NCBI GenBank assembly: GCA_965197415.1
Contig: OZ240207.1
Location: 2,858,957 to 2,922,956, forward strand
DNA length: 64,000 nt
Direction: 5' to 3'
Source: Dehalococcoidia bacterium
GTDB taxonomy: Bacteria > Chloroflexota > Dehalococcoidia > Lucifugimonadales > JAGWBF01
The translations under genes were made by a program, and so were the position numbers. Every line of letters starts with the position of its first letter. The first letter of the stretch is position 1. Of the stretch, positions 4,039-32,833 are shown piece after piece. The notes beneath the pieces were generated by a model. That model was not told the DNA's origin, searched no databases, and saw only the letters and a program-made list of their open reading frames with translations.

Positions 4039-4117
4039 AACCGATTCTCCGGTAGAGGTCTCCGATTGGGGAATATTGGGTTACGTATCGAGGATTGGCC
4101 GTCGCCAGGGATAAAGT

Positions 4118-4156
4118 GCGGCAGGCTTGGGATTAGGACCCCGTAGGGCCTGCCGC
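4118..4156 (-). terminator. GC-rich hairpin downstream of the 474-aa glnA (9-bp stem GCGGCAGGC/GCCTGCCGC)
   Basis: Perfect 9-bp inverted repeat at 4118-4126 / 4148-4156. On the minus strand it is followed by ACTTTATCC. It lies about 50 nt past the upstream gene's stop. Confidence 0.4.
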
Positions 4157-4160
4157 AACG

Positions 4161-4189
4161 ATTCTATTGACTGGCGCAGGTCGTGTCAA
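4161..4189 (-). promoter_or_regulatory. Sigma70-type promoter candidate for the 445-aa glnA
   Basis: The minus strand reads TTGACA (4189-4184), a 17-nt spacer, then TAGAAT (4166-4161). Confidence 0.5.
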
Positions 4190-4207
4190 TTTGGACGCCG
4201 AGTCGGG

Positions 4208-5632
4208 CTAGGCGTCGAAGTACATGAAGAACTCATACGGGTGGGGCCGTAGCCTGATGTTGTCCAGGTCGCCCTTCTTGTAGTCCAACCAGGTTTCAAT
4301 CAGGTCCTCGGTGAACACGCCGCCCCGCAACAGGAACTCGTAGTCGTTCTCCAGCGATGCCAGGGCCTCGTCCAAAGAGCCGGGCACCTGCCGTATCTTG
4401 GCAAGCTCTTCGGGCGGCAACTCATACAAGTTCTGGTCCACGGGGTCGGGCGGCTCTATTTCGTTTATGACTCCGTCGATCCCCGCCATCAGCATAGCCG
4501 AGAACGCTACATATGGGTTGCAGGCGGGGTCGGGTGCGCGGAACTCCAGCCTTCGGGCTGCCGGACTGGCAGAGTAGGTCGGGATGCGGATGCACGCCGA
4601 GCGGTTCCGCACGGAGTAGACCAGGTTCACGGGAGCCTCGAAACCTGGCACCAGCCGCTTGTAGCTGTTGGTGGTCGGGGCTATGAAGGCCAGTAGAGCC
4701 GGGGCGTGCTGGAGCAGGCCGCCGATGTAATGGCGGCAGGTGGCGCTGAGCATAGCGTAGCCGTTGGCGTCGTAGAAGAGGTTCTGCCCTTCCCTCCAAA
4801 GACTCTGGTGGGTGTGCATTCCTGTGCCGTTGTCGCCGAACAGGGGTTTGGGCATGAAGGTCGCCACCTTGCCGTACCTGTGTGCAACGTTCTTGACCAC
4901 GTACTTGAGTATCGTGACGGTGTCCGCCATTTTGGTCAGGCTGTCGAAGCGGACGTCGATCTCAGCCTGTCCCGCCGTAGCGACCTCGTGGTGGTGTTTC
5001 TCGACGATGATGCCGAACCGCTCTATTTCCTGAACGGCCTCCGTGCGTATGTCCTGGAAGGTGTCGAACGGGGGCGTCGGGAAGTAGCCTTCCTTGTGGC
5101 GAGGCCTGTAGGCCAGGTTGCGGCCACCGTCCACTGTACCGGGCTGGCCTGAGTTCCATATCCCTTCATCCGAATCGATGAAGTAGTAGCCTTCATTGCT
5201 GGTCTGGTTGAACCTGGCCGAGTCGAAGATGAAGAACTCCGGTTCCGGCCCCCAGTAGCTTACGTCGGCAATGCCGGAACTCTTGAGGTACTCCTCCGCC
5301 TTGTGGGCGACGTTGCGCGGGTCCCGGGTGAAGGTGTCCCGCGTCACCGGGTCCAGGATGTCGCAAATCATGGTCAAGGTCGGCGCCTTGAAGAAGGGGT
5401 CCATGTTGGCGGTGGTCGTGTCGGGGATGAGAAGCATGTCGCTCTCGTCGATGGACTTGAAGCCGCGAATGCTGGACCCGTCGAACCCGTAACCCTCAGC
5501 CAGGTTGTCCTCGCTAAGCTCGCTCAAGGGAATGGAGACGTGCTGGAAGGTGCCCGGCAGGTCCGTGAACTTCAGGTCGATGATCCCTATCTTGTTGTCT
5601 TTGGCGTGTCTAACAACTTCTTCCGGGGTCAT
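4208..5632 (-). CDS. glnA: Glutamine synthetase type I, beta-like form (474 aa) with adenylylation-site motif
   Basis: GS-I motifs (FDGSSIRGF, MPKPLFGDNGTGMHTHQS, NSYKRL, RAPDPACNPYV). 'DQNLYELPPEE' matches the NLYDLP adenylylation loop of GSI-beta. Confidence 0.95.
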   Translation of the reverse strand: MTPEEVVRHAKDNKIGIIDLKFTDLPGTFQHVSIPLSELSEDNLAEGYGFDGSSIRGFKSIDESDMLLIPDTTTANMDPFFKAPTLTMICDILDPVTRDTFTRDPRNVAHKAEEYLKSSGIADVSYWGPEPEFFIFDSARFNQTSNEGYYFIDSDEGIWNSGQPGTVDGGRNLAYRPRHKEGYFPTPPFDTFQDIRTEAVQEIERFGIIVEKHHHEVATAGQAEIDVRFDSLTKMADTVTILKYVVKNVAHRYGKVATFMPKPLFGDNGTGMHTHQSLWREGQNLFYDANGYAMLSATCRHYIGGLLQHAPALLAFIAPTTNSYKRLVPGFEAPVNLVYSVRNRSACIRIPTYSASPAARRLEFRAPDPACNPYVAFSAMLMAGIDGVINEIEPPDPVDQNLYELPPEELAKIRQVPGSLDEALASLENDYEFLLRGGVFTEDLIETWLDYKKGDLDNIRLRPHPYEFFMYFDA

Positions 5633-5703
5633 TGAAGGTTCCCTCCTGTTGGATTTGCTTTCCGATATAGGGCATTTTGGAACAGGACCGTCCCCAGGGG
5701 CGT

Positions 5704-6957
5704 CTATTCCTCTTCATCCCCCGACCCTCCGGCGATGCCCACTATGGACTCGTCGATGGGGACGTAGGCTTCCTCTCCATGCTGAGACAGGTCCAACCCC
5801 TCTTCCTCTTGGGACTCATCGGCCCTGATGCCGAGGGTGTACTTGATGGCGACGAGTATCACGGCGGTGGTGACCAGCGCCCATCCCCAGGTGGCGCCTA
5901 TTCCAGCCAACTGGTACAGGACCTGCTCCCCTCGGGTGACGCCTTCCGCCAGTCCTCCAAACCCTATTCCTACGAATAGGCCGGTTGCCAAGGCGCCCCA
6001 AGTGCCTCCCATTCCGTGGACGCCCCAGACGGCCAGAGCATCGTCAACCTTGAGTTTCAGCAAAAGCTCGACGGCGCCATAACAGATGACCCCCGCGCCC
6101 AGGCCGATGATTATGGCGGGCATGGGTCCGACGAAACCTGCGGCGGGCGTGATGGCTACCAGCCCGGCGACGGCCCCGGAAGCCGCTCCCACCAGGCTGG
6201 GCTTCTTTCCGAATATCCAGGACATGCCCACCCACGCGCACATCGCCATAGCCGTGGCGGTGTTGGTGGCCACGAATGCGTTGACCGCCGTGCCGTTGGC
6301 GGCCAGGGCGCTCCCGGCGTTGAACCCGAACCACCCGAACCAGAGCAAAGCGGCTCCTAGCACTATCATCGGAACGTTGTGGGGAGTCATCGGCCGTTGG
6401 CCGAACCCGATGCGCGGCCCAATGACGAACGCCGCCACCAGGGCTGCCACGCCAGCGTTGATGTGGACGACGGTGCCGCCCGCAAAGTCTAGGGCTCCAA
6501 GCTGGAAGAGCCATCCGTCGCCGTGCCATACCCAGTGGGCCACAGGAGCGTATACGATGGTCACCCACAGTATGGTGAAGATCACGAAGGCGCTGAATTT
6601 CATACGCTCGGCGAATGCGCCGGTTATCAGGGCGGGCGTGATTATGGCGAACATGGCTTGGAAAATCATGAACGCCTGGTCGGGTATGTTTCCGCCTTCT
6701 TCGGCGCTGACTCCGTTGAGTCCGAACAATTTCAGGTTTCCGATAAAACCGCCAATGTCATTGCCGAAGGCCAGGCTGTATCCCCACAGCACCCAGACTA
6801 CGCCCACGATGCCGATGGTCATGAAGCTGTACATTATGGTGGACAGGACATTCTTTTGGCGCGACAAGCCGCCGTAGAAGAATGCCAGCCCGGGCGTCAT
6901 AAGAAGCACCAGAGCCGATGACGTTAGGACCCATGCTGTATCTCCTGAGTCAATCAT
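5704..6957 (-). CDS. amt: Ammonium transporter (Amt family), 417 aa
   Basis: N-terminal 'DTAWVLTSSALVLLMTPGLAFFYGG', 11-12 TM segments and a 'VHGMGGTWGAL' region. SD AGGAGG before the ATG. Confidence 0.93.
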   Translation of the reverse strand: MIDSGDTAWVLTSSALVLLMTPGLAFFYGGLSRQKNVLSTIMYSFMTIGIVGVVWVLWGYSLAFGNDIGGFIGNLKLFGLNGVSAEEGGNIPDQAFMIFQAMFAIITPALITGAFAERMKFSAFVIFTILWVTIVYAPVAHWVWHGDGWLFQLGALDFAGGTVVHINAGVAALVAAFVIGPRIGFGQRPMTPHNVPMIVLGAALLWFGWFGFNAGSALAANGTAVNAFVATNTATAMAMCAWVGMSWIFGKKPSLVGAASGAVAGLVAITPAAGFVGPMPAIIIGLGAGVICYGAVELLLKLKVDDALAVWGVHGMGGTWGALATGLFVGIGFGGLAEGVTRGEQVLYQLAGIGATWGWALVTTAVILVAIKYTLGIRADESQEEEGLDLSQHGEEAYVPIDESIVGIAGGSGDEEE

Positions 6958-7010
6958 GACAGCCTAACCCTCCTTTCCGTGTTCCCCTTAATGTTTTTCT
7001 CCGACAAGCA

Positions 7011-7044
7011 ACCCAGTCCATACCCGCAGGGGCATGGACTGGGT
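7011..7044 (-). other. Strong hairpin between the 29-aa sORF and amt (11-bp perfect stem ACCCAGTCCAT/ATGGACTGGGT)
   Basis: Inverted repeat seen directly in the sequence. Only a weak U-run follows on the minus strand, so a terminator or attenuator role is unresolved. Confidence 0.4.
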
Positions 7045-7072
7045 CAACGTTGGACTTATCTTGGTTTGGGTG

Positions 7073-7162
7073 TTAGTTCTTCTGGGCAAACTTTCTCGGA
7101 AGCACAACCCACAACGCGAAGAGTCCTACGAACACGGCTCCCGCTAGAATTGCTGGCAACAT
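7073..7162 (-). CDS. Candidate 29-aa single-TM small protein (MLPAILAGAVFVGLFALWVVLPRKFAQKN)
   Basis: ATG at 7162 is preceded by GGAGG 7 nt upstream. One hydrophobic helix plus a basic tail. It sits between the two amt genes. There is no homology evidence. Confidence 0.3.
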   Translation of the reverse strand: MLPAILAGAVFVGLFALWVVLPRKFAQKN

Positions 7163-7205
7163 CTTTCCTCCATCTCTCCGCTGTCGTCTTGATATGCATT
7201 CTGAG

Positions 7206-7268
7206 GGCAATGTGTTTCGGACATTTTGCATCGATGTTAAATCTTTGTTACATCCGAAACACATTGCC
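7206..7268. promoter_or_regulatory. Perfect 16-bp inverted repeat with a 31-nt loop carrying phased TGTTAC-like hexamers
   Basis: GGCAATGTGTTTCGGA (7206-7221) pairs with TCCGAAACACATTGCC (7253-7268). Hexamers start at 7213, 7224, 7235 and 7246. TGTTA-N8-TTACA lies at 7235-7252. Confidence 0.5.
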
Positions 7269-7288
7269 TTGGTCTTGTTTCCGCTTGC

Positions 7289-8638
7289 TTAGAACGTTGA
7301 GGAAGGCGGCGCGTCCGTGACGTAGGTTTCAAGCCCATGCTCGGACTTGTCCAAGCCTTCGAGCTCCTCTTCCCTGCTCGCCCGCACACCGATGGTCGCC
7401 TTGAGGCCGAAGAACAGGGCGAAACCGGTGACTAGCGACCAGGCCACGACCACGGCCATGCTTATAAGCTGGGAGACGATTTGCTCAGCGTTCCCGTCCA
7501 CGAGGCCGCTCACGCCATTGTGGCCCGCGGCGAATATCCCCACCGCCAGGAGCCCCCAAAGTCCAGAGAATCCGTGGACTGCGATGGCCCCAATCGGGTC
7601 GTCCACCTTGAGGACCTTTTCCAGGAACTGGAGCGAGAGCATCATGATGGGCGCCGCTATTCCTCCGATGACCACGGCGGCCCAGGTGTCCACGTAGGCG
7701 CAGGGCGCCGTTATGCCCACCAATCCCGCCAGGGCCCCGTTGCAGGCCATAAGGATGTCGGCCTTGCCGGTCTGCACCAGTTTGATGTAAAGAGCTACGA
7801 CCGCTCCGGTGGCTCCGGCGAGGAGAGTGTTGACAGCGTTCAAACCGATGGTGTCGCTGCCGCCGATGTTGAACCCGAACCACCCGAAGAAGAGTATGAA
7901 GGTCCCGATTATCACGAAGGGCGTGCTGTGGCCGGATAGGATGTTGGCGGACCCGTCGGCGTTGAATTTGCCGATACGGGGACCCACTACCATGCAGGCT
8001 GCCAGCGCCAGAAATCCTCCGACGGCGTGGACTACGCCCGATCCGGCATAGTCAACCGCGCCAGGCAGGTTGATGGCTGAAAGGTCGCCCAACCATCCGC
8101 CGCCCCACACCCAGTGAGCGTACAGAGGGTATATGAGGGCGGTCACTATGAAGCTGTAAGCCATGTAGGTCTGGATTTTGGTCCGCTCGGCTATGGCCCC
8201 GGCCACGATGGTGGCGGCGGTGGCTGCGAACACCATTTGGAACATCCAGTCCACCCAGTTGTCATCCACAAGGAAGAAGTTGGACGTTCCGATGATTCCG
8301 GCCGCCGAGGCGCCGGTCATGAAGGCAAAACCGAAGGCCCAGAAGGACAGGGACGCGATGGCAAAGTCCATGAAGGACTTGGTCATATAGTTGGTGGTGT
8401 TCTTGGTGCGTATCAAGCCGGCTCCAAGGAAGGCGAAACCCGCTTGCATGAAGAACACCAGGAAGGCGGCTGCCAGGGTGATGAAAGCGCCCAGATTGCC
8501 GTCCACTACGTTGATGGCTTCCTGGGTCTCGTCGTCGACCTGTGCGAACGCCACGTTGTAGCCGCCGATGATGCCGACGGCCAACAACCCGGCCATCATC
8601 AGCACCAGCGTTCTCCTCAATGATACATGTTTCAACAT
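7289..8638 (-). CDS. amt: Ammonium transporter (Amt family) with N-terminal signal/anchor, 449 aa
   Basis: Amt-like TM pattern ('FMQAGFAFLGAGLIRTKN', 'VHGFSGLWGLL'). ATG at 8638 is preceded by AGGAGG. The upstream ATG at 8680 lacks an SD. Confidence 0.92.
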   Translation of the reverse strand: MLKHVSLRRTLVLMMAGLLAVGIIGGYNVAFAQVDDETQEAINVVDGNLGAFITLAAAFLVFFMQAGFAFLGAGLIRTKNTTNYMTKSFMDFAIASLSFWAFGFAFMTGASAAGIIGTSNFFLVDDNWVDWMFQMVFAATAATIVAGAIAERTKIQTYMAYSFIVTALIYPLYAHWVWGGGWLGDLSAINLPGAVDYAGSGVVHAVGGFLALAACMVVGPRIGKFNADGSANILSGHSTPFVIIGTFILFFGWFGFNIGGSDTIGLNAVNTLLAGATGAVVALYIKLVQTGKADILMACNGALAGLVGITAPCAYVDTWAAVVIGGIAAPIMMLSLQFLEKVLKVDDPIGAIAVHGFSGLWGLLAVGIFAAGHNGVSGLVDGNAEQIVSQLISMAVVVAWSLVTGFALFFGLKATIGVRASREEELEGLDKSEHGLETYVTDAPPSSTF

Positions 8639-16463: not shown

Positions 16464-17711
16464 ATGACATCGCCTCTTGAGGGACTAAAGGTCGTCGACA
16501 TGTCCCAGGTCTTCTTTGGGCCTGGGGCAGCCATGTTCCTGGGCGACCAAGGAGCAGACGTCATAAAGGTCGAACCCCTCGGCGGGGACGGGATGAGGTA
16601 CAAGTATGCCTCGCCCTTCCTGCGCAAATGGGGCCTCGGCAAGTGCTTCCTGGGGCTGAACCGGAACAAGCGGAGCATTTCCGTTGACGCTTCCGCCGAT
16701 GGCGGGCGGGAGATAGTCCACCGGCTGGTGGAATGGTCTGACGTTTACATCATGAATATGAGGCCGGGGACTGAGGCCCGTTTAGGGCTGGACTACGAAA
16801 CTCTCAGCCGGATAAATCCCCGGCTCGTATACGCTTCCATCAGCGGGTTCGGCCATGAGGGCCCGGAGGCCCGACTCCCGGCTTACGACATTGTCATACA
16901 GGCCCGTTCAGGCGTGATGTCCACCAACAAGCTGCCCGATGGCACTCCCATACCCTACGTGGTCATGTACGCCGACATATCCGGCTGCATGACCCTCTCC
17001 TACGCTATAATGGTCGCTTTGTGGGAGCGTGAACGCACCGGCAAAGGCCAGAAGATAGACGCCTCCCTGCTGCACCAGGGCTTGGCAATGCAGATGCAGC
17101 AGCTAGTGTGGGTAGAGAATGACGAATCGCCCATGGCCGGCGCCTCCCCTTCGGCCATGTCGGGCAGCTACCGCTGCTCCGACGGCGGCCATCTGGCCAT
17201 AGTCATCCAGGAAGAACGCCAATACCAGGCGTTATGCCAAGTCTTGGACCTTCCCGAGGCGGCCACGGATCTCAGGTTCGGCACGTTTCACTCCAGAATC
17301 GACAACGCCGCTGACCTCGGCGAGCTTATAGGCGGTGTATTTGGAACGCGCCCTCTCGACGAGTGGCTCCCCAAGCTCAAGCAAGCGGGGGTTCCCGTTG
17401 AGGCTGTCGTGACCAGGGACCAAACGCTCCAGGACGTTCAGGCTCTGGCCAACGGAATGTTCTGGGAGCAGGACCATCCACACGTGGGAAAGGTCAAGAT
17501 GGTTACGCCCCCATTCAGTTTGTCGTCTCACTCTTTAGAGGAAAGGCCGTGCAGGCCCGTCCCGCTGCTGGGGGAGCACACCGACGAGACTCTTGCAGGG
17601 CTGGGCTACGGAGCCCACGAGATTGCAAGACTGCACGAGATCGGCGTTGTCCGGGGACCCGAAGCTCTATTGAACGCGGCGGCTGGGAGCGTTAGCGGCC
17701 TGGCACGATGA
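16464..17711 (+). CDS. Family III CoA-transferase (CaiB/BaiF/Frc type)
   Basis: 'LEGLKVVDMSQVFFGPGAAMFLGDQGADVIKVEP' N-terminal signature and the 'YADISG' Asp region. Confidence 0.9.
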   Translation: MTSPLEGLKVVDMSQVFFGPGAAMFLGDQGADVIKVEPLGGDGMRYKYASPFLRKWGLGKCFLGLNRNKRSISVDASADGGREIVHRLVEWSDVYIMNMRPGTEARLGLDYETLSRINPRLVYASISGFGHEGPEARLPAYDIVIQARSGVMSTNKLPDGTPIPYVVMYADISGCMTLSYAIMVALWERERTGKGQKIDASLLHQGLAMQMQQLVWVENDESPMAGASPSAMSGSYRCSDGGHLAIVIQEERQYQALCQVLDLPEAATDLRFGTFHSRIDNAADLGELIGGVFGTRPLDEWLPKLKQAGVPVEAVVTRDQTLQDVQALANGMFWEQDHPHVGKVKMVTPPFSLSSHSLEERPCRPVPLLGEHTDETLAGLGYGAHEIARLHEIGVVRGPEALLNAAAGSVSGLAR

Positions 17712-22835: not shown

Positions 22836-22864
22836 TTGACGTTACGACTATACCACAGTATCTT
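22836..22864 (+). promoter_or_regulatory. Promoter candidate TTGACG-17-TATCTT for the amidohydrolase gene
   Basis: Hexamers at 22836-22841 and 22859-22864, 41 nt upstream of the ATG. Confidence 0.4.
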
Positions 22865-22904
22865 GAGGGCGAAAGGCAATTTCAGTCGACGCGAGGGGTA
22901 AGGA

Positions 22905-24107
22905 ATGGACGATTTCAAGTTGATCGACGGCGACGCTCACATACTGGAGCATGACAACATATTCGACAACTATCTCGAAAAGAAGTACCGGCATCTCATT
23001 GACGAGGCCAGCGTCAGGTGGTGCAGGACTTCCAACCTGGGGGAAAGGCGGGCCGCCCCAATGGAATACGACACCGCCGACCCGCTTTGCTTTGAAATGA
23101 ACCTGAAGGTCATGGGCAGGCAGATGCCCTTCGGGGCCGAAGGCTTTGTCAATGCCGCCAAGGGTTTTGAGGGAAGGGACCTGGATGACCTGGACCGGGC
23201 CTACGGTAAGTGGGCCGACATGAACTTCCCGGCCAGCGCGTACCGTGAGGTCATGGACACCTGCGACATCAGCCACATGATTCTGTACCCCACCGCCGGG
23301 TTCTGGCTCACAGGCGTGCAGGAGATGGACGGGGTCACCGCCAACGCCCTGCGCCGCGCGTACAACCGCTGGCTTGGCGACTTCTGTGCGGAGATTGGTC
23401 CCGGAGGCTGCGGAGCCGCTTCCATCGACCTGCGGGACCCGGTGGCCGCCGCAGAGGAGGTCCGCCGCTGTGTGAAGGAGTACGACTTCAAGGCCGTGCA
23501 CATGAACCCTGCTCCCCACCCCGACATCCGCGTCTACCACGAAGAGTGCGACGTGTTGTGGGAGACATGCGCCGAGCTTGGGGTGCCCATAGGGCTGCAT
23601 CCCAGCACCAGCCATCCCTTCGACCAGGGGTTCCTTACTTACATCGACGGTCTGAGAAACTGCGCCTCCGCCGTCTCATTTGTCATGGGAAGCATGTTGG
23701 CCTGCACCGCCTTCATTATGGGCGGAGTCCTGGAGAGGCACCCCAAGCTTAAGCTCGTGTTCCTGGAGTCGGGCTGCGGATGGGCCGCATTCTGGCCTGA
23801 CCGCCTGGAAGCCGGCATTCAGGGCGGAACCCGCAAGCTCAAGATTGAAGGCCTCAACCACTCGCCGCAGGAATACTTCGAACGCCAGTGTTTCGTTGCC
23901 GCTGACCAGGACGACCCTGGTTTGGAAGACCTGATAGACGCCATCGGAGACCACGTCATCCTCGGCGCCACCGACTTCGGCCACCCCGAGGGGCGCATGT
24001 ACTACCGGGCCAAGCAGGACATGATGAACATGCCCAACATCTCCCTTGAGAGCAAGCGGAGAATCCTCAGGGACAACTCCCTCAGGGCATATCCCATCAA
24101 ACCCTAG
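22905..24107 (+). CDS. Amidohydrolase-2 family metal-dependent hydrolase/decarboxylase (ACMSD-like)
   Basis: 'IDGDAHILEH' metal-binding start, 'AVHMNPAP' and 'ATDFGHPEG' near the C-terminus. Confidence 0.82.
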   Translation: MDDFKLIDGDAHILEHDNIFDNYLEKKYRHLIDEASVRWCRTSNLGERRAAPMEYDTADPLCFEMNLKVMGRQMPFGAEGFVNAAKGFEGRDLDDLDRAYGKWADMNFPASAYREVMDTCDISHMILYPTAGFWLTGVQEMDGVTANALRRAYNRWLGDFCAEIGPGGCGAASIDLRDPVAAAEEVRRCVKEYDFKAVHMNPAPHPDIRVYHEECDVLWETCAELGVPIGLHPSTSHPFDQGFLTYIDGLRNCASAVSFVMGSMLACTAFIMGGVLERHPKLKLVFLESGCGWAAFWPDRLEAGIQGGTRKLKIEGLNHSPQEYFERQCFVAADQDDPGLEDLIDAIGDHVILGATDFGHPEGRMYYRAKQDMMNMPNISLESKRRILRDNSLRAYPIKP

Positions 24108-24119
24108 CCCCCTGTACTG

Positions 24120-25097
24120 GTGACAACAAGGAAGAATCACAGGCGGCCGCTTACAGCGGCCGCCTTGCATATATGGGTGGGAACACTGGTGCGCATCGTT
24201 ATAATCTGCCTCATTGTTGTGGGGTCCCTCGCTTGCCAGTTCACATCGGAGCCCACTCCTGAACCGACTGGAGTTCCGACTCCTACAGCAACTCCGACCC
24301 TGGCTCTGACTCAGTCCCCTGTTTTGCCGACCCAGCCGCCAGCCGTGTTGCTGGACATCGCTGTGGCTCCCGTTCCAGACGATCTGCCTCCCTATGACCG
24401 CGACGACTGGCGCCACTGGACCGATGAGGACAGGGACTGCCAGAACACCCGCCACGAGGTCCTTATCGAGGAAAGCCGCACTGACGTTGTGTACAAGACC
24501 GGCGAGCAGTGCAAAGTGAAGGCAGGAGAGTGGTACGGGGCGTACACCGGCGTGGTGGTCACAGACCCGGCCAAGTTGGACATCGACCACTTCGTCCCGC
24601 TGGCAAATGCTCACAAGTCGGGCGGCTGGTCCTGGTCATCCGAGCGTAAGCGGAGCTATGCCAACAGTCTTGACGACCCCGGGCATTTGATAGCCGTTAC
24701 GTCCGGAGCCAACCGGTCAAAGGGAGCCAAAGGCCCCGAAGAGTGGCGCCCTTCCAACGAGGCATACTCTTGCCAATACGCTCTTGATTGGATCAAGGTC
24801 AAGCAGACCTGGGAACTGACCGCGACTCCTGCTGAGACAAGTGCGCTGCAGGAGTTGTTGGCAACCTGTGATAGCCCCACGGAATTGGCTCCCTCGACGG
24901 TGGAACCCGCTGCGGTGCCTACCGGTCCCAAGCCTGCTGCGCCAGGACAAGGGGCCGTCTTTTCATCATGCGACGAGGCTGACGATGCCGGAGTGCAACG
25001 GATTCAAGGGTCTGTAGGGTCGGGCAAAGGATTCCCCAAGTCAGTGGTCCCGAGCGCGCGTGACGGCGACGCTGACGGGGTAGTCTGCGAGCATTGA
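24120..25097 (+). CDS. Membrane-anchored extracellular nuclease: DUF1524/HNH-type (GmrSD C-terminal-like) domain plus C-terminal excalibur Ca-binding domain
   Basis: TM helix, a Thr/Pro linker, 'LDIDHFVPLANAH' and 'AVTSGANRSKG' His-Me motifs, and C-terminal 'CDEADDAG...RDGDADGVVCE'. The true start is probably GTG 24177, after the hairpin. Confidence 0.72.
   Translation: MTTRKNHRRPLTAAALHIWVGTLVRIVIICLIVVGSLACQFTSEPTPEPTGVPTPTATPTLALTQSPVLPTQPPAVLLDIAVAPVPDDLPPYDRDDWRHWTDEDRDCQNTRHEVLIEESRTDVVYKTGEQCKVKAGEWYGAYTGVVVTDPAKLDIDHFVPLANAHKSGGWSWSSERKRSYANSLDDPGHLIAVTSGANRSKGAKGPEEWRPSNEAYSCQYALDWIKVKQTWELTATPAETSALQELLATCDSPTELAPSTVEPAAVPTGPKPAAPGQGAVFSSCDEADDAGVQRIQGSVGSGKGFPKSVVPSARDGDADGVVCEH
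24141..24165 (+). terminator. Perfect 11-bp GC hairpin after the amidohydrolase gene
   Basis: AGGCGGCCGCT-TAC-AGCGGCCGCCT. There is no clear U-tract. Confidence 0.35.
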
Positions 25098-25250: not shown

Positions 25251-26474
25251 CTATGACCAGGAGACCGGCAGCGACTTCAGGGAGCGAAAGCTGTTCGTGG
25301 GATGGTACTCCAACTCCTCCGACTCCAGGCGCATATCAGGGAACCTCTCGGCCAGAGCCATGAACGCCTCCTGACCCTCCAGGCGGGCCAATGTGGCTCC
25401 AAGGCAATGGTGGATTCCTGAACCGAAAGCCACGTGCCTGTTGGGGTGGCGGGTGATGTCGAAGCGGTCCGGCTGGTCGAATATGTCGGGGTCCCGGTTG
25501 GCAGAAGCGATGTACCACCGCATCCGGTCGTGTTTGCCCACCGTCCGTTCTCCCAGCTCAACCTCTTCGCTGGCGATGCGCCCTATGGACTTGACCGGCG
25601 GGTCATAGCGGAGACATTCCTCCGTGGCTCTTACGGTCATGCCGGCCGGGTCTGACCTGAGCAGCTCCCACTGGTCGGGGTGCCGCATGAACGACAGGGC
25701 GCCGTTGCAAATCAGGTTGATGGTCGTCTCATGTCCGGCCATCAGCAGCAGTAAGGAGTTGGCCAGCGCTTCTTCTCTGCTGTAGGCGCCCGTCTTGACC
25801 CCTCCGGCCAGGATGGACATCAGGTCGTCCTTGGGGGAGTCCACCCTCTCTTCCATCAGAGGCTCCACGTACCCGATAAGCCCCTTGATCCCTTCAGCCA
25901 GGGGTTTCATCCTGCTGCTCTCGCCCCGTCCGATGAATGTCAGCTTCTCGGCCAGATCGCGTATGAAGAGCCTGTCCTCAGTCGGGAGCCCCAGCATCTG
26001 GGCAATCACCAGCACGGGCAGAGGGGTTGCGAAGTCCCGCATCATGTCCATGCGGCCTTCTTCCTCCACCTCGTCGAGCAGGTACTTGATGGCCGAGCGC
26101 ACCAGAGGACGCCACCTCTCCGTCTCCTTGGGTGTGAAGTAGTGGTGAACCACCCGCCGCATGTCGGTGTGAGTGGGACGGTCCCGCAACGCGAACCAGT
26201 CGGAGAAGAAGTCGGTCACGTAGTGGTACAGGCCCATGTCCTCTTCCTGTATGGGTGGATAGGGCGGACGTGGGTCCAGCTTGTGCTGGACTGAGGAGAA
26301 TAGTTCATGGTGGCGGGCAATCCACACCAGGTGGTCGTAGCGGGTGATAATCCAGATGTCGTACTTCTCGTTCCAGTGGATGGGATCCTCATCCCGGAGC
26401 CGCGCGAAATAGGGATAAGGGTCCGTCATCACTTCCGGGGAGAATATGTCGTCATCGATGGTCTGTATTGCCAT
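25251..26474 (-). CDS. Cytochrome P450
   Basis: Heme loop 'FGSGIHHCLGATLA', 'ETT' I-helix 'LLLMAGHETT' and the ExxR 'ECLR' motif. ATG 26474 follows AAGGAG. Confidence 0.92.
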   Translation of the reverse strand: MAIQTIDDDIFSPEVMTDPYPYFARLRDEDPIHWNEKYDIWIITRYDHLVWIARHHELFSSVQHKLDPRPPYPPIQEEDMGLYHYVTDFFSDWFALRDRPTHTDMRRVVHHYFTPKETERWRPLVRSAIKYLLDEVEEEGRMDMMRDFATPLPVLVIAQMLGLPTEDRLFIRDLAEKLTFIGRGESSRMKPLAEGIKGLIGYVEPLMEERVDSPKDDLMSILAGGVKTGAYSREEALANSLLLLMAGHETTINLICNGALSFMRHPDQWELLRSDPAGMTVRATEECLRYDPPVKSIGRIASEEVELGERTVGKHDRMRWYIASANRDPDIFDQPDRFDITRHPNRHVAFGSGIHHCLGATLARLEGQEAFMALAERFPDMRLESEELEYHPTNSFRSLKSLPVSWS

Positions 26475-26558
26475 GCGTCTCCTTGCCATGATTCGCTTCC
26501 GGCCAAGGATGATTGCTCAACCTATTATGCGCCGACATTCTTGTCAAGGACGTATGGA

Positions 26559-26852
26559 GCGTTTCGGTTTGACACCCATCACGCGCCCAAGTATTCTCAG
26601 CTTAACGCTGTCCGGACGGTGCCCGGCGCCCAATATGTCGAAGGCGGGGTTTCATGGGTCGTCTCGACTGTAAAACGGCGATAATATCGGGTGGAGCCAG
26701 AGGTCAGGAAGCTGAAGAGGCCCGTCTCTTCGCGTCCGAGGGCGCCAATGCGTTAATCGGCGACATCCGGGACGAACTTGGTGCACAGGTGGAGGAGGAA
26801 ATCCGCGAGCTTGGCGGCGCCGCAGACTATGTGCACCTTGACGTGACTCAGG
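26559..26852. repeat. Copy A of a diverged ~294-bp duplication (promoter + 5' end of SDR gene)
   Basis: Hand alignment to 31980-32273 gives about 42 mismatches in 294 positions and no indels. Confidence 0.85.
26569..26597 (+). promoter_or_regulatory. Promoter candidate TTGACA-17-TATTCT (copy A)
   Basis: Hexamers at 26569-26574 and 26592-26597. Both hexamers and the spacing are conserved in copy B. Confidence 0.55.
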
Positions 26853-26998
26853 GCTGGAGACGGTTCCCACGCTCCCGAAAGCCAAGGGCTAAGGGCCACC
26901 TACGTACAGGCGCCGTTACAATAGGAGGTATTGATGTCCCTGTCCCCTCGAGAAACGGGAGAATTGCCACAAGCTCTTGCGGGAGTGCGTATTGTTGA
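26654..26998 (+). pseudogene. Truncated SDR gene fragment (first ~66 codons homologous to 32075..32833, then unrelated sequence)
   Basis: 'MGRLDCKTAIISGGARGQEAEEARLFASEGA...AADYVHLDVTQ' parallels the intact SDR. After codon ~66 the similarity stops, and the ORF tail overlaps the next gene's start. Confidence 0.7.
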
Positions 26999-29618
26999 TT
27001 TCACTTGGGTGAGGGCAGGCCCATGGGCCACCCGCTGGCTGGGAGCTTTAGGCGCCGAGGTGATCAAGGTCGAGTGGCCGGACAGCGAGAGGGGCAGGGG
27101 CGAAGGAATAGGCACCCCCCCGGGAGTGGAGACCAGCCTGAACACATCGGGGAACTTCAACGACACCAACTGTAACAAGTTGGGTGTAACTCTGAACCTA
27201 CGCAGCCCAAAGGGCCTCGACCTGATAAAGCGTCTCATCTCCATCTCGGACGTGGTCATCGAGAACTTCAGCGCCAGGGCATTGGGGAGTTGGGGATTGG
27301 GTTACGATGAGATGCTTACGCTGAAACCCGACATCGTCTATGTATCCCAGGCAGGGTTTGGCCATACTGGACGTCATCGCCACTACACCACGTTCGGCCC
27401 TATCGCACAGGCCTTTTCGGGGCTGACCTACCAGTCTGGGCTGCCCGGAAAGCCTCCTGCAGGATGGGGCTGGTCCTACCTGGACGACACCGGCGGCATG
27501 TATATGGCCATGGCCACCATGACTGCCCTGTACCACCGCGACATGACCGGCCAGGGGCAGCACGTGGACCTTTCTCAGATGATCGCTGGGATAACCCTGA
27601 ACGGACCCGCGCTGCTGGACGCCACTGTGAACGGCAGACCATCTCGCCGCGAGGGGTATCCCCCGGGGAACCGCTCTGTTTGGCCGGGGATCGCCTTTGC
27701 GAACAACTACCGCGGCCGCACCGCCGCTCCCCACAACGCCTACCGCACCAAGGGGGACGGCTACAACGACTGGTGTGCCATCGCCTGTTTTTCCGACGAG
27801 GAATGGCAAAACCTGGTCCGTGCGATGGGCAGTCCTGCCTGGGCCACTGATGGCCGATTCACCAGCCTCGAAAGTCGACTCCAGCGCCAGGAGGAACTGG
27901 ACCGGCACATTCAGGAATGGACCCTGACGCTGGAGAAGTACGAGTTGATGGAGCGCTGCCAGGCAGCCGGGGTGGGCGCTATGCCTGTCCAGAGCGTCGA
28001 AGACCGGGTGGAGCACGATCCCCAGCTTCGCCACAGGGAGATGTACACGGAGCTGGACCATCCGGCGCTGGGACCTCGCAAGTTCCAGAACGCACCCTTC
28101 AAGCTCTCCGAGACCCCAGCGTTCCACTATCTGGCGAGCCCGTTGATCGGCCAGCACAACAGGGAGGTCTTCGAGGGTCTCCTGGAGCTGAGCCATGAAG
28201 AGTTGCTGGAAGGATACGAGGACGGCGCCTTTTGGCCCAAGACCAGGGAGCGCTACCCCTATATTGAGGAGATGCTGCAGGGAGGCCCGCTTCCCGCTGG
28301 AGAAGGGCGCAGGCTGTCTCGCCAAAATAGGGGATCAAGAGCGCCGGAGGGAACCGCGTCGGAGACTTCTGGGCACAACGCAAGCGGCCCTCTGTCGGGC
28401 CTCAGGGTACTGGAGCTGGCTGACGAGAAGGGAGAGTTCTGCGGCAAGCTGATGGCGGACCTGGGGGCTGACGTTATCAAAATCGAGCCTCCCGGCGGAG
28501 GCACCAGCCGGACCCTGGGACCTTTCCTCGATGACGTTCCTCACAGAGAGCAAAGCATCTCCTTCTGGCACTACAACACCTCCAAGCGAGGCATCACCCT
28601 CAATCTGGAAACATCGGACGGGAGAAGCCTCTTCCGACGCCTCGCCTCCAACGCAGACGTTATCCTGGAGACTTCGAGACCGGGGCGCCTGCCATCCCTT
28701 GGACTGGGATATCAGGATCTGAAGGAACTGAACCCCCGGTTGATCTTTTGCTCCCTGACTCCCTTCGGCCAGACGGGGCCATGGCGGGACTACGTCACCA
28801 GCGACCTGCTCCACCTGGCTGTCGGAGGCCAGATGGGGTGCTGCGGTTACGACGAGGAGGACCTGCCGGGCGCCCCTCCGATAGCTGGAGGTGGCGGGCA
28901 GGCCTGGCACATAGGATGCCACTATGCCAACATGGCCATCGTGGCAGCTCTGATGCATCGCAACGAATCGGGGCGAGGGCAGTACATTGATGCCTCCATT
29001 CATGACGCCTGCGCCCTCACCACCGAGTTCCACGTAGCCAACTACATATACACCGGCGCGTTCCCCCTCCGGCAGACAGGACGTCACGCCTCTGCCACGC
29101 CCCGTCCCCAGTCTCAGTTCCTCTGTCAGGATGGCAGATATATGCACGCCTCCGTCGGCCAGCTTGGCCCTCGGCAAATAGGCGCGCTGGCTGAGTGGAT
29201 GGACACCTATGGCCTGGCTGGAGATCTGCAAGACCCCAGCTACCAGGATGCCAAGGTAGTCCGGGAGAAGGTCTCCCACATCGGTGACCTCGTGGCGAGG
29301 TTTGCCGCCAACCTCACCGCAGAGGAGTTGGCCTACGGGGGCCAGGAGAGGGGTTTCGGTTGGGGATTGGTCCGGACTCCCGAAGACCTGCTAGAGGACG
29401 GCCACCTGGAGGACCGGGGCTTCTGGGTCGAGGTGGAGCATCCGGAGCTGGGGCGCAGCTTCAAGTATCCCGGGCCTGCAGGCATATACAACGGCTCTCC
29501 CTGGAGGATCCGCCGCCGGGCGCCACTGATCGGAGAAGACAACCAAGAGGTCTACTGCGGAGAGCTGGGGCTTCAGCCGGTGGAGCTGGCGCTCCTCGCG
29601 GAGTCCAAGGTCGTTTAG
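26934..29618 (+). CDS. Tandem fusion of two family-III CoA-transferase modules (about 894 aa)
   Basis: Two N-terminal signatures: 'LAGVRIVDFTWVRAGPWATRWLGALGAEVIKVE' and 'LSGLRVLELADEKGEFCGKLMADLGADVIKIE'. They are joined by a low-complexity linker. SD AGGAGG lies 5 nt before ATG 26934. Confidence 0.88.
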   Translation: MSLSPRETGELPQALAGVRIVDFTWVRAGPWATRWLGALGAEVIKVEWPDSERGRGEGIGTPPGVETSLNTSGNFNDTNCNKLGVTLNLRSPKGLDLIKRLISISDVVIENFSARALGSWGLGYDEMLTLKPDIVYVSQAGFGHTGRHRHYTTFGPIAQAFSGLTYQSGLPGKPPAGWGWSYLDDTGGMYMAMATMTALYHRDMTGQGQHVDLSQMIAGITLNGPALLDATVNGRPSRREGYPPGNRSVWPGIAFANNYRGRTAAPHNAYRTKGDGYNDWCAIACFSDEEWQNLVRAMGSPAWATDGRFTSLESRLQRQEELDRHIQEWTLTLEKYELMERCQAAGVGAMPVQSVEDRVEHDPQLRHREMYTELDHPALGPRKFQNAPFKLSETPAFHYLASPLIGQHNREVFEGLLELSHEELLEGYEDGAFWPKTRERYPYIEEMLQGGPLPAGEGRRLSRQNRGSRAPEGTASETSGHNASGPLSGLRVLELADEKGEFCGKLMADLGADVIKIEPPGGGTSRTLGPFLDDVPHREQSISFWHYNTSKRGITLNLETSDGRSLFRRLASNADVILETSRPGRLPSLGLGYQDLKELNPRLIFCSLTPFGQTGPWRDYVTSDLLHLAVGGQMGCCGYDEEDLPGAPPIAGGGGQAWHIGCHYANMAIVAALMHRNESGRGQYIDASIHDACALTTEFHVANYIYTGAFPLRQTGRHASATPRPQSQFLCQDGRYMHASVGQLGPRQIGALAEWMDTYGLAGDLQDPSYQDAKVVREKVSHIGDLVARFAANLTAEELAYGGQERGFGWGLVRTPEDLLEDGHLEDRGFWVEVEHPELGRSFKYPGPAGIYNGSPWRIRRRAPLIGEDNQEVYCGELGLQPVELALLAESKVV

Positions 29619-29622
29619 ACTT

Positions 29623-29826
29623 CTATTGGTTGCCGTTCCAGAGGTTGTCCAAGATACCCACTGGAGACAGTGAGAGCTGCTTCAATTTGACACCCACGGC
29701 CCTGTATATGGCGTTGGCCACATCAGCCGTGGGAGGCGCCAGCGTCACGTCTCCCATTCCTCGGGCTCCGAAGGGATGTCCGGGGTTCGCTGCCTCTACG
29801 GTCCCTAGCCAGGGGTGGCGCTCCAC
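29623..29826 (-). pseudogene. C-terminal remnant (~58 codons) of a molybdopterin XDH/aldehyde-oxidase large-subunit gene
   Basis: 'NPGHPFGARGMGDVTLAPPTADVANAIYRAVGV' parallels the C-terminus of 33657..36011 ('NPGHPFGVRGVGEVSLVPPMAAVANAIHDAIGV'). Its upstream part is replaced by the 3' end of the thiolase gene. Confidence 0.65.
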
Positions 29827-31139
29827 ACGGTGAAGTCGCCGTCCAAGGGCATGGGACCGCCGGAGATGGCGACCTCCGGCTTTACCCCCGTGACCTGTCG
29901 CGCACCCGCTCGTCCCTGCAACTGCTGAATGCAGTCCGTGTGCATCCAGAAACGGCTGCGGCCGCTCCCGATGTTGCCGCCGCTGGGGGAAACGGGGTTC
30001 GGCCCTTCGATGCTGATGTCCGTCTGGTAGAAGTCCAACGCCTCTCCAAACTTGATGCCACGGTAGCCCAGGCCTTCAATGTGGAACTGGTGGAACAGGG
30101 AGAAGCCGTCATACATGTTCTCGAAGGAGAGATCGGCTGCGGTAATCCCGGCGCCCTCATAGATCTTCCGGGCCGATCTGGCGGTTTCGGCTTCGACCTC
30201 GTCCAGTGTTGGAGTGAGGCTCCTGGGCTTGATCCGGCTCGACGCATGGTTCAGGATGTAGACGGGCTTCTGCTTCATGTCCTTGGCCCGTTCAGCGGTT
30301 GTGAAGAGGTAGGCGGCGCTCGCCATGACCGGTATGTCGTTATCGAAGAGGTTAGCCGGCTTGGCTATCCACCGGGCGGCCAGATAGTCCTCCTCCGTCA
30401 ATTGTTCAGGCCGATGCTGGGCCCAATAGCCTTCCGGGAACAACAGTCCGTTCCTTCTTGAATTCACCATAAAGGGAGCCATCATGTCGTGGGTCTTGCC
30501 ATACTTTCGGCAGTACTCGGCAAACTGCAGGGCGGTGCCGAAGGACGCCGGGGTACCCCAGAGACGGCTAACCCCGACAGTCCCGGGTACGTCGTCCCCA
30601 GCGTTGGCCCCTCCCTGGTAGTACCGGCCTTCCATGTTGTGCCAGCCCTTGAGCACCAGGCAGGTCTGCGCGAGACCAGCGCCTACAGCCTGGGCGCCTA
30701 GGACAACGGCTTGGGACATACAACCGTAGGGCGGCACCCGACAGTACATGGTGAATTTGACGTTCACCAACTCCGGCATGTTCTTCAACAGCCACTCGGC
30801 GCTCAGCTTGGCGATGCCGTCCAAGGGGTCGCTGGTGGTCTCAAAAGCGTTGATCACTTCCGTGGGTAAGGGTTGGCCTTCCGGCCAGTGAGCCCCGGTA
30901 GCGGTCCCAGGGTCAAGGATCAAACCGTCGACCTGGTCCGGCGAGACGCCTGCGTCCTCTATAGCTCTCCTGAGGGCCAGGATGCTGTTTGCGCCTACGC
31001 TGGTTTCGGGTTTCCAGTCCCAGCGCCGGGCAGTGGGAGAGTGCCCAACACCGACGGCCGCCACCTTCCCTCGGTGTTCCCATAACCCCGTACCCTCTTC
31101 TGTCCGGTACATCGAAATTGGAGCATGTTGAGTGGTCAT
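29805..31139 (-). CDS. Thiolase-fold protein (SCP-x type), DUF35-associated
   Basis: 'KVAAVGVGHS', a candidate nucleophile 'YGCMSQAV' and C-terminal 'SPSGGNIGSG'. It lies directly downstream of a DUF35 gene. Confidence 0.85.
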   Translation of the reverse strand: MTTQHAPISMYRTEEGTGLWEHRGKVAAVGVGHSPTARRWDWKPETSVGANSILALRRAIEDAGVSPDQVDGLILDPGTATGAHWPEGQPLPTEVINAFETTSDPLDGIAKLSAEWLLKNMPELVNVKFTMYCRVPPYGCMSQAVVLGAQAVGAGLAQTCLVLKGWHNMEGRYYQGGANAGDDVPGTVGVSRLWGTPASFGTALQFAEYCRKYGKTHDMMAPFMVNSRRNGLLFPEGYWAQHRPEQLTEEDYLAARWIAKPANLFDNDIPVMASAAYLFTTAERAKDMKQKPVYILNHASSRIKPRSLTPTLDEVEAETARSARKIYEGAGITAADLSFENMYDGFSLFHQFHIEGLGYRGIKFGEALDFYQTDISIEGPNPVSPSGGNIGSGRSRFWMHTDCIQQLQGRAGARQVTGVKPEVAISGGPMPLDGDFTVWSATPG

Positions 31140-31184
31140 TGGTGATTCCTTTCTGAGAGCCTTAGTCCACAAGGATGTGAGTGT

Positions 31185-31595
31185 CTAGCTAACTACCCGC
31201 CACTCGGGGACCTTTTGGCCGTTGGCTGTGGCCTCGAACAGGACCTCCACACTGGCCCCCAACGGGACCTCGTCCACCGGAGTTCCGGGGAGGTGAGAAT
31301 ACATCTGGATGCTCGGGTCGTCGTCCAGCATAATTACCGCGACGTTGAAGGGTTGGTCGTCCTGAAGCAGTCTGATGGGGCAGTCGTAGACCACTCCGTA
31401 GTTGTATATCTTGCCGCGGCCGCTCATCTGCTTCCACTCCAGATTGTCCCCTGAGCCGCACTGGTCGCACGCCGGGACCGGGGGGTGCTGAAGCCTGTCG
31501 CAGGCTTTACAGTTCTGGATCACCAACCGCCCCTCGTTGGCGGCGTCCCAGAAGGGTTTGGTCAGCTCATCGGGCGCCACACCCTGCTTTACCAT
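31185..31595 (-). CDS. DUF35 OB-fold / rubredoxin-like zinc-ribbon protein
   Basis: 'CKACDRLQHPPVPACDQCGS' zinc ribbon followed by an OB-fold-like region. This is the typical partner of SCP-x thiolases. Confidence 0.85.
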   Translation of the reverse strand: MVKQGVAPDELTKPFWDAANEGRLVIQNCKACDRLQHPPVPACDQCGSGDNLEWKQMSGRGKIYNYGVVYDCPIRLLQDDQPFNVAVIMLDDDPSIQMYSHLPGTPVDEVPLGASVEVLFEATANGQKVPEWRVVS

Positions 31596-31979: not shown

Positions 31980-32273
31980 GCGTTGCGGTTTGACACCCAT
32001 CCCATGCCCAAGTATTCTCTGCTTAACGGTGTGCGGGCGGCGCCCGGTGCGCAATATGTCCAAGGCGGGGTTTCATGGGACGTCTCGACGGCAAAACGGC
32101 CATCATATCCGGTGGAGCCAGGGGGCAGGGAGCTGAAGAGGCCCGCCTTTTCGCGTCCGAGGGCGCCAGTGTAGTCATCGGAGACATCAGAGATGAACTG
32201 GGCGTCCAAGTGGAGGCGGAAATCCGAGAGCTTGGCGGGGCCGCAGACTACGTGCACCTTGACGTGACCCAGG
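31980..32273. repeat. Copy B of the diverged ~294-bp duplication
   Basis: See copy A (26559-26852). Confidence 0.85.
31990..32018 (+). promoter_or_regulatory. Promoter candidate TTGACA-17-TATTCT (copy B) for the intact SDR gene
   Basis: Hexamers at 31990-31995 and 32013-32018. Confidence 0.55.
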
Positions 32274-32833
32274 AGGACGATTGGCGCAGGGCTGTGGAGT
32301 TTGCCGAGTCAAAGTACGGTGGGCTGAACGTTCTGGTAAACAATGCTGGCATCGTGACCTGGTCCGCCATCGATGAAATGCCCGTTGAGGAATGGGACCT
32401 GGTTATGGCCGTCAACATGCGCGGCGTGTTTCTGGGCACCAAGCACTCCATACCGGCCATGATAAGAGCTGGAGGAGGCTCCATAATCAACATCTCCTCT
32501 GGGGCGGGCATTGCCCCGGCCTCTCCTTCGTCCTCCGCCTACGCCGCCAGCAAGGGCGGGGTGCGGCTTTTCACCAAGGCAACGGCTATCCAACACGCCA
32601 AGGACAACATTCGCTGCAACTCCGTCCACCCCGGCCCCATAGACACACCCATGGTACAAGAGACCCGCATGGCCAGGCCCGATGAGATGGCGGCCCGCAT
32701 GGACCGGGTGCCCTTGGGTCGCATGGGCGAGTCCTCGGAGATAGCTTATGGAGTCCTTTTCCTTGCCTCCGACGAGTCGTCCTACATGACCGGCTCTGAA
32801 GTCGTCATCGACGGCGGCCGGACAGCCATGTAG
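32075..32833 (+). CDS. Short-chain dehydrogenase/reductase (SDR)
   Basis: 'TAIISGGARGQG' cofactor motif, 'NNAG' and the catalytic 'YAASKGG'. Confidence 0.92.
   Translation: MGRLDGKTAIISGGARGQGAEEARLFASEGASVVIGDIRDELGVQVEAEIRELGGAADYVHLDVTQEDDWRRAVEFAESKYGGLNVLVNNAGIVTWSAIDEMPVEEWDLVMAVNMRGVFLGTKHSIPAMIRAGGGSIINISSGAGIAPASPSSSAYAASKGGVRLFTKATAIQHAKDNIRCNSVHPGPIDTPMVQETRMARPDEMAARMDRVPLGRMGESSEIAYGVLFLASDESSYMTGSEVVIDGGRTAM

Follow-up and report, generated by a model that had tools for sequence, protein, structure and literature searches.

Family-III CoA-transferases are interlocked dimers with active-site cavities at the interface of their two subunits, where an aspartate (Asp) forms the anhydride and thioester intermediates of the reaction (PMC9813914). 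In a 64,000-nucleotide (nt) stretch of a Dehalococcoidia genome (assembly GCA_965197415.1, contig OZ240207.1, positions 2,858,957 to 2,922,956; hereafter the window, to whose own numbering coordinates refer unless another contig is named), one gene carries two such modules in a single chain of 894 amino acids (aa). The locus raises the question of whether this chain is a genuine fusion, how many active sites it holds and how its halves relate to the subunits that other enzymes of the family keep apart. The answer we reach, with good though not full confidence, is that it is a heteromeric family-III (Frc/CaiB/BaiF-type) CoA-transferase in single-chain form. Its family, which is expanded in SAR202, falls within a known class of tethered heteromeric CoA-transferases but has the two modules in reversed order.

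A single gene with two CoA-transferase modules

The gene is one uninterrupted open reading frame (ORF) on the + strand, running from a TTG at 26931 or an ATG at 26934 to position 29618. The ATG is the likely start, because a Shine-Dalgarno sequence lies 5 nt upstream of it; the ribosome-binding site of the gene is strong. Its parts are listed below, where BbsEF stands for succinyl-CoA:(R)-benzylsuccinate CoA-transferase (PDB 9fn0, 9fol, 9fun).

26923..26928, + strand: Shine-Dalgarno sequence AGGAGG, 5 nt 5' of the ATG at 26934 (read from the sequence)
26934..29618, + strand: complete gene, from start to stop codon, of the two-module family-III CoA-transferase of 894 aa (single ORF; two PF02515 stretches; fused homologs of 880-900 aa at 61-94% identity)
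26934..28280, + strand: module 1 (residues 1-449), which bears the Asp and is closest to BbsEF chain B (best PDB match 9fn0_B; Foldseek)
27060..27080, + strand: family signature of module 1, VIKVEWP, residues 43-49 (sequence; conserved columns)
27483..27485, + strand: codon of Asp184, the predicted catalytic nucleophile (L-INS-i column; family conservation)
28206..28280, + strand: C-terminal tail of module 1, residues 425-449, with W434, P435 and Y443 invariant (family alignment)
28281..28385, + strand: low-complexity linker, residues 450-484 (in frame; unconserved; predicted disordered)
28386..29615, + strand: module 2 (residues 485-894), which lacks the Asp and is closest to BbsEF chain A (best PDB match 9fn0_A; Foldseek; substitution rates)
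28473..28493, + strand: family signature of module 2, VIKIEPP, residues 514-520 (sequence; K516 and E518 invariant)
28878..28910, + strand: motif PIAGGGGQAWH, residues 649-659, in place of the catalytic-Asp loop (L-INS-i; family alignments)

Pfam recognizes two full-length PF02515 (CoA_transf_3; Frc/CaiB/BaiF) stretches in this ORF, with a total of 596 bits against a cut-off of 23.3, and a purpose-built hidden Markov model (HMM) of the family places the modules at residues 8-424 and 480-885. The NCBIfam models of family-III enzymes match each module over the whole length of the model, below their equivalog cut-offs; none of these equivalogs reaches its curated cut-off for module 1 or for module 2. 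The linker between the modules, GGPLPAGEGRRLSRQNRGSRAPEGTASETSGHNAS, is in frame with both, and its counterparts in homologs measure 26-45 aa (median 34), are rich in Ala, Pro, Gly, Ser and Thr and are not conserved. The tail that precedes it reaches further than BbsEF chain B does in the alignment, and AlphaFold2 models it with high confidence; since the tail is kept in relatives that encode the two modules as separate genes, it is part of module 1 and not of the linker. An earlier note on this DNA, made from the sequence alone, had described a covalent fusion of two family-III modules, with the family signature in both halves and a low-complexity linker of about 35 aa, and all three features are borne out by these results.

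One catalytic aspartate

The catalytic position was located in an L-INS-i alignment that took in both modules, the enzymes YfdW, YfdE and SUGCT, both benzylsuccinate CoA-transferase chains and the sole other family-III member that the family HMM finds in the window:

16464..17711, + strand: stand-alone one-module family-III paralog with catalytic Asp D171 in YADISG (Pfam, HMM, alignment)

In this alignment D184, the first Asp of the module 1 motif YLDDTGG, shares its column with D169 of YfdW, D171 of the paralog, D178 of 9fn0_B and the catalytic Asp of SUGCT and of YfdE. Position 184 is Asp in 119 of 121 family members, and D185 is present in all 121. The same column in module 2 is occupied by W658 of the motif QAWHIGC, and HMMER pairwise alignments to solved structures place either A657 or W658 there, so that a test for the catalytic Asp at the column of Frc/YfdW D169 finds it in module 1 and fails in module 2. 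An acidic residue that might serve in its stead was sought, and module 2 has no Asp or Glu within 10 residues on either side of the column, hence no alternative acidic nucleophile nearby. The hand alignment of the earlier note, which had set LDDTGG, YADISG and AWHIGC against one another and concluded that module 2 is without a catalytic Asp, is thereby confirmed. Judged by its sequence, the whole protein carries one predicted nucleophile.

The loop that replaces the Asp loop in module 2 is itself conserved. The motif PIA[PG]GGG[NQ]AWH is nearly invariant in alignments of 121 and 91 sequences, and P649, A651, G654, G655, W658 and H659 are invariant in them. In the Asp-less modules of more distant two-domain proteins the catalytic column varies (Y 40, S 13, H 13, E 10 and F 9, among other residues) and the fold-critical residues are kept, which makes the Trp-His pocket specific to the family of the window protein.

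Two different subunit types in one chain

The two modules are 27-28% identical to each other, and BbsEF is the best solved match for each of them separately, with identities of 31-37% to the window modules. In the case of module 1 the best match is chain 9fn0_B (E 3.9e-72), with 238 bits against 87 bits for 9fn0_A; in the case of module 2 it is 9fn0_A (E 1.1e-51), with 176 bits against 105 bits for 9fn0_B. Comparison of the AlphaFold2 model with the PDB by Foldseek gave target-normalised TM-scores (template-modelling scores) of 0.90-0.91 for chain B and 0.86 for chain A. A duplicated module that lost its Asp was also considered as the origin of module 2 and is ruled out by the low mutual identity of the halves and by their matches to different BbsEF chains.

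The likeness to BbsEF extends to the active sites. The title of PDB entry 9fol names a 'D178-CoA adduct', and counting along the alignment places D178 in chain B, in the column of D184; chain A has Tyr171 at the catalytic column. One BbsEF chain thus carries the adduct-forming Asp and the other an aromatic residue, Tyr171 against Trp658 in the window protein. Since the BbsEF heteromer already combines one nucleophile with one aromatic site, the window protein can be read as the tethered form of that arrangement. The two systems differ in that BbsEF consists of two separate polypeptides, whereas the window protein is fused, and in that the window locus appears to lack a bbs operon, with no adjacent acyl-CoA dehydrogenase or hydratase. 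The bbs genes are presumably ordered bbsE then bbsF, which would put the Asp-less subunit first, opposite to the window protein.

One-module enzymes of the family (Frc/YfdW, YfdE, SUGCT, CaiB, Mct) share with module 1 the fold, the signature and the catalytic Asp, and the logic of the interlocked dimer applies to them as well (PMC9813914). They are homodimers with two equivalent sites, whereas the window protein consists of two diverged modules with one nucleophile.

Structure model and proposed mechanism

AlphaFold2, run on the whole 894-aa chain with 91 homologs, returned a model with a mean predicted local distance difference test score (pLDDT) of 86.8 and a predicted TM-score (pTM) of 0.92. 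The pLDDT falls below 50 only at residues 1-9, 262-265 and 462-482, the last of these being the linker. A pTM of 0.92 over 894 residues points to a defined mutual packing of the modules, and from it we infer an interlocked pairing within the chain. The earlier note had suggested that the protein may be a single-chain pseudo-heterodimer with one active and one inactive site, and the reading as a single-chain heterodimer with one nucleophile gains support from the matches to the two BbsEF chains, from the split gene pairs described below and from the pTM; the pairing of the modules and the inactivity of the second site are its presumptive parts.

The canonical mechanism of the family, operating at D184, is the best-supported reading. 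Module 1 would be the catalytic subunit, in which Asp184 would attack the donor acyl-CoA to give an acyl-aspartyl anhydride; a beta-aspartyl-CoA thioester would then form at the same residue, and the CoA would be handed to the acceptor carboxylate. Module 2 would be an obligatory partner, since family-III enzymes fold as interlocked dimers with active sites at the interface. It retains the fold and the shared N-terminal signature region, and the presence of Trp658-His659 at the nucleophile position would leave its own site incapable of covalent chemistry. The disordered tether of 26-45 aa would fix a 1:1 stoichiometry of the two modules.

The fused family, its split relatives and selection

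Among 5.8 billion proteins, at least 120 clusters (90% identity) of fused homologs were found at 61-94% identity to the window protein, nearly all of them 874-915 aa long and covering the full query, and a scan of one genome per prokaryotic species returned at least 517 places. The best 80 of these are mostly in metagenome-assembled genomes of Dehalococcoidia, SAR202 or Chloroflexota and carry the same fused gene; the closest locus among the matches listed, on OZ244780.1, is 94% identical. Because the best homologous loci are mostly from Dehalococcoidia and SAR202, the window very probably comes from the genome of a marine, SAR202-type member of the Dehalococcoidia. Several paralogs occur in some genomes, as on OZ253588.1, which holds four among the best 80 of the at least 517 places, and an expansion of CaiB/BaiF paralogs in SAR202 was reported by Landry et al. 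2017 (PMC5395668).

The earlier note had allowed that a stop codon or frameshift might separate the modules. None is present in the window ORF, the fused gene recurs in the clusters and loci just described, and 9 of 10 translated orthologous loci read through without a stop. The tenth, at 5001-7667 of CAXXFI010000002.1, has an in-frame TGA at codon 750 that replaces the conserved Trp of an AEWMD motif; this ortholog is either a pseudogene or the product of a sequencing error. Two family homologs of 1029 aa (P0012 and P0014) are extended at the N-terminus by about 135 aa that include a P-loop-like motif (IYGPSAAGKLTVARELA); the extension could be a third domain, or gene calling could have joined an upstream gene to the CoA-transferase.

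On two independent metagenome contigs (L003 and L004) the modules are encoded by two neighbouring genes, module 1 before module 2 as in the window; these split relatives are overall 57-66% identical to the window modules. On L003 the module-1 gene ends in ...FPYMEEMLR and a TGA stop that overlaps the GTG start of the module-2 gene (GTGA), whose product is 66% identical to window module 2. On L004 the module-1 gene (57% identical) and MTTQELPGPLAGLRV..., which comes after it, are 45 nt apart, and the spacer contains the ribosome-binding site GAGGAA. By pairwise identity ranks, the split module-2 proteins sit inside the identity range of the fused family. The fusion could have arisen from such an adjacent gene pair, Asp-bearing gene first and Asp-less gene second, through loss of the stop codon between them; fusion is the presumed direction of the event.

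Selection on the two modules was estimated as the ratio of nonsynonymous to synonymous substitution rates (dN/dS) by the Nei-Gojobori method, comparing the window gene with ten orthologous loci. Module 1 has ratios of 0.08-0.17, module 2 of 0.10-0.20 and the linker of 0.2-1.1. Purifying selection acts on both modules, and the values for module 2 indicate that it is not decaying.

Module order in two-domain CoA-transferases

Two-domain proteins with a single essential Asp were described by Dong et al. 2018, before whom DddD was the only characterized two-domain member; that study arrived at 2,401 two-domain homologs, the majority of them in Actinobacteria and Proteobacteria, and in PtmU4 homologs located a conserved Asp in the C-terminal domain, mutation of which abolishes activity (PMC6006322). 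Tandem fusion with a single Asp is therefore on record, with biochemical validation for DddD and PtmU4. Since active two-domain enzymes are known, a tethered fold is attainable, which largely answers the worry of the earlier note about the folding topology of an interlocked architecture on one chain.

The window protein shares with the PtmU4/DddD class two tandem PF02515 modules whose similarity is greatest at the N-termini, a linker of low conservation and a single module with the catalytic Asp (PMC6006322). It differs in its host, which belongs to the Chloroflexota (SAR202) and not to the Actinobacteria or Proteobacteria that dominate the published set, and in its locus, which, unlike those of PtmU4 and DddD, has neither a thioacid cassette nor a dimethylsulfoniopropionate (DMSP) context. 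It also differs in the order of its modules: the Asp module is C-terminal in PtmU4 homologs and N-terminal in the window protein, the C-terminal module of which has Trp at the corresponding position. This reversal is the new point, beyond both the known tandem fusion and the claims of the earlier note.

The order was compared by searching 1.84 billion cluster representatives (50% identity) exhaustively with HMMER and analysing the best 150 by domain. The resulting 140 two-domain representatives are a neighbourhood of the window query and not a census, and fall into four groups:

Asp-less module, then Asp module: 123 of 140
Asp module, then Asp module: 10 of 140
Neither module with Asp, ambiguous: 4 of 140
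Asp module, then Asp-less module: 3 of 140

The last group consists of the window's own cluster (P0029), P0124 and P0218. The N-terminal module is nearer to window module 2 in 133 of the 140 and the C-terminal module is nearer to window module 1 in 137, so the nearest two-domain representatives have modules homologous to those of the window protein in swapped positions, with the counterpart of module 1 at the C-terminus and that of module 2 at the N-terminus. Plasmid-borne RefSeq fusions of Mycolicibacterium, Rhodococcus and Paraburkholderia seemed in tblastn to be colinear with the window protein over residues 12-883, an assignment that was rejected when analysis at the domain level gave the Asp-less-then-Asp order; in these RefSeq fusions from cultured genera the order is the usual one, the first module carrying Y or F and the second D.

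P0121 (811 aa, 48% identical), the closest opposite-order relative, was rejected as a true fusion because a frameshift joins an adjacent gene pair. The entry (MBI3743439.1, annotated as an 811-aa 'CoA transferase', at 4001-6436 of JACQEE010000114.1) reads as an Asp-less subunit followed by an Asp subunit; the C-terminal third of its first module lies in another frame, and its residues 283-397 are out-of-frame and rich in Arg, Gly and Ala. It is counted among the 123 Asp-less-then-Asp entries, which therefore hold at least one such artefact, and is given no weight as a true fusion.

Because several opposite-order proteins are 43-48% identical to the window protein, against 36-40% for P0124 and P0218, the sequences hint that module order was set more than once. 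A bolder combination, which we consider unlikely yet worth stating, is that the SAR202 family is a natural domain-order permutation, showing that the threaded fold can be tethered either way and that the order arose independently, and that in addition the GGG-(N/Q)-A-W-H pocket of module 2 is a second working site, whether ligand-binding or catalytic.

A usual-order fusion stands in a bbs-like beta-oxidation layout on the Mycolicibacterium madagascariense plasmid pJCM13574 (33062-45063). Three family-III genes lie there, encoding a 762-aa two-domain, a 429-aa one-domain and an 863-aa two-domain protein, and they adjoin genes for an enoyl-CoA hydratase, a thiolase, an OB-fold (oligonucleotide/oligosaccharide-binding; DUF35) protein and two acyl-CoA dehydrogenases.

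Alternative readings

Several points weigh against reading the protein as a tethered heteromer with one working site. The loop that replaces the Asp is conserved above the family average, as would be expected of a functional site more than of a dead one. The evidence for threading within the chain is the pTM of a predicted model. Among PDB entries there is no structure of a two-domain family-III protein, and Foldseek reached a full-query TM-score of at most 0.42. The identity ranks of the split module-2 proteins are compatible with fusion first and with fission first. Finally, the neighbours of the gene are not conserved across paralogs, the best common neighbour family occurring at 11 of 81 loci, so that any inference of substrate from this single locus is weak.

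The first of these points leads to the alternative that survives best, although we rate it as rather improbable: module 2 would not be a passive partner, and its invariant pocket (GGG-N/Q-A-W658-H659, together with W545-H546-Y547) would be a second working site that binds the CoA ester or the acceptor acid, or carries out another reaction by analogy with the lyase of DddD. DddD is indeed both a transferase and a lyase (PMC6006322). In the window family the motif is invariant in 121 members at 61-94% identity, the dN/dS of module 2 is about equal to that of module 1, and module 2 keeps the N-terminal signature region and the fold-critical residues. This conservation may, however, reflect packing against module 1, and the catalytic column is free to vary in related Asp-less modules, which ties no general chemistry to it. 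We know of no residue that replaces the Asp nucleophile in family III, and this too counts against a second site.

A further arrangement, which strikes us as quite improbable, is that the modules pair between chains, module 1 of one chain interlocking with module 2 of another in a domain-swapped dimer or a longer assembly. A flexible tether of 26-45 aa permits either arrangement, and BbsEF, which we take to be an alpha2-beta2 assembly, would provide a precedent for higher-order contacts in the subfamily. The pTM of 0.92 was, however, obtained for a monomer and would be unlikely over 894 residues without a defined packing of the modules, and pairing within the chain is entropically favoured.

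That the protein is a DddD-type DMSP CoA-transferase/lyase is very unlikely. DddD was the best Swiss-Prot hit for some SAR202 CaiB/BaiF paralogs (PMC5395668). In the window protein, however, the Asp lies in the module opposite to that of the PtmU4 homologs, the two BbsEF chains are the best matches by structure and by sequence, no specific NCBIfam model reaches its curated cut-off and the locus has no dddD-type operon context. We assume that the Asp of DddD is C-terminal too, which would add to these differences.

The weakest alternative, that a sequencing frameshift or lost stop fused two genes of the organism in the assembly, can draw on the existence of split relatives and of at least one frameshifted two-domain database entry (P0121), and is scarcely credible in view of the at least 120 independent clusters and the best 80 of at least 517 loci with the same fused gene, the 9 of 10 translated orthologs without a stop, and a linker that stays in frame yet varies in sequence and length as a real tether should.

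The window locus and hints at the substrate

The genes that surround the fusion gene are the following.

24120..25097: GmrSD_C-like ORF
25251..26489: cytochrome P450 (P450) gene
26559..26852, + strand: 294-nt duplicate of the start of the short-chain dehydrogenase/reductase (SDR) gene (its first ~66 codons and the region upstream of them), directly 5' of the fusion gene (direct repeat with 31980-32273, 86% identity)
29805..31172, - strand: thiolase-like gene, convergent with the fusion gene (PDB matches 9myr_A and 6ok1_A, lipid-transfer-protein type)
31185..31595, - strand: DUF35 OB-fold gene, paired with the thiolase-like gene (PDB match ChsH2(DUF35), 6ok1_B)
32075..32833, + strand: SDR gene, most similar to 3-alpha,20-beta-hydroxysteroid dehydrogenase

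The multi-copy paralog set of SAR202 and other Dehalococcoidia most likely activates diverse carboxylic acids without ATP. For the copy in the window, the neighbouring P450, the lipid-transfer-type thiolase with its DUF35 partner and the hydroxysteroid-dehydrogenase-like SDR give a weak hint at an alicyclic or steroid-like acid as substrate. The thiolase-like gene matches the lipid-transfer-protein type with an E of 6.5e-18, against 1.2e-6 for the benzoylsuccinyl-CoA thiolase subunit, and the pair it forms with the DUF35 gene is kept beside the closest orthologs only, at 10-12 of 80 loci. Together, the thiolase-like, DUF35 and SDR genes resemble steroid side-chain cleavage modules.

The 294-nt copy leaves a truncated SDR ORF (26654-26998), which overlaps the start of the fusion gene out of frame and aligns with the adh_short profile over positions 1-60 only. 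Neither the ortholog in L005, the 94%-identical locus, nor that in L007 has the copy upstream of it, so that the duplication is recent and specific to the window genome; possibly it represents promoter capture. The GmrSD_C-like ORF and the P450 gene lie between the fusion gene and a luciferase-like monooxygenase block, and both are matched in L007. Neither is detected in the 5-kb flank of L005; there, homologs of the window genes at 22848-23615 and 23676-24614 are found no more than about 500-1,000 nt 5' of the CoA-transferase gene. The difference has the look of an insertion or deletion polymorphism.

Significance

The finding refines known biology and overturns nothing, and its novelty is modest. 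For annotation, it means that the genes of about 890 aa labelled 'CoA transferase' or 'CaiB-like' in SAR202 genomes, which include family clusters with hundreds of ocean-metagenome members, would be better read as single-chain heteromers with one active site than as duplicated enzymes. The fusions of the same order, the split pairs of the same order (57-94% identical in all) and the more distant fusions of the opposite order form a comparison set, and these three forms provide a natural test set for the folding of an interlocked, threaded dimer whose subunits are tethered.

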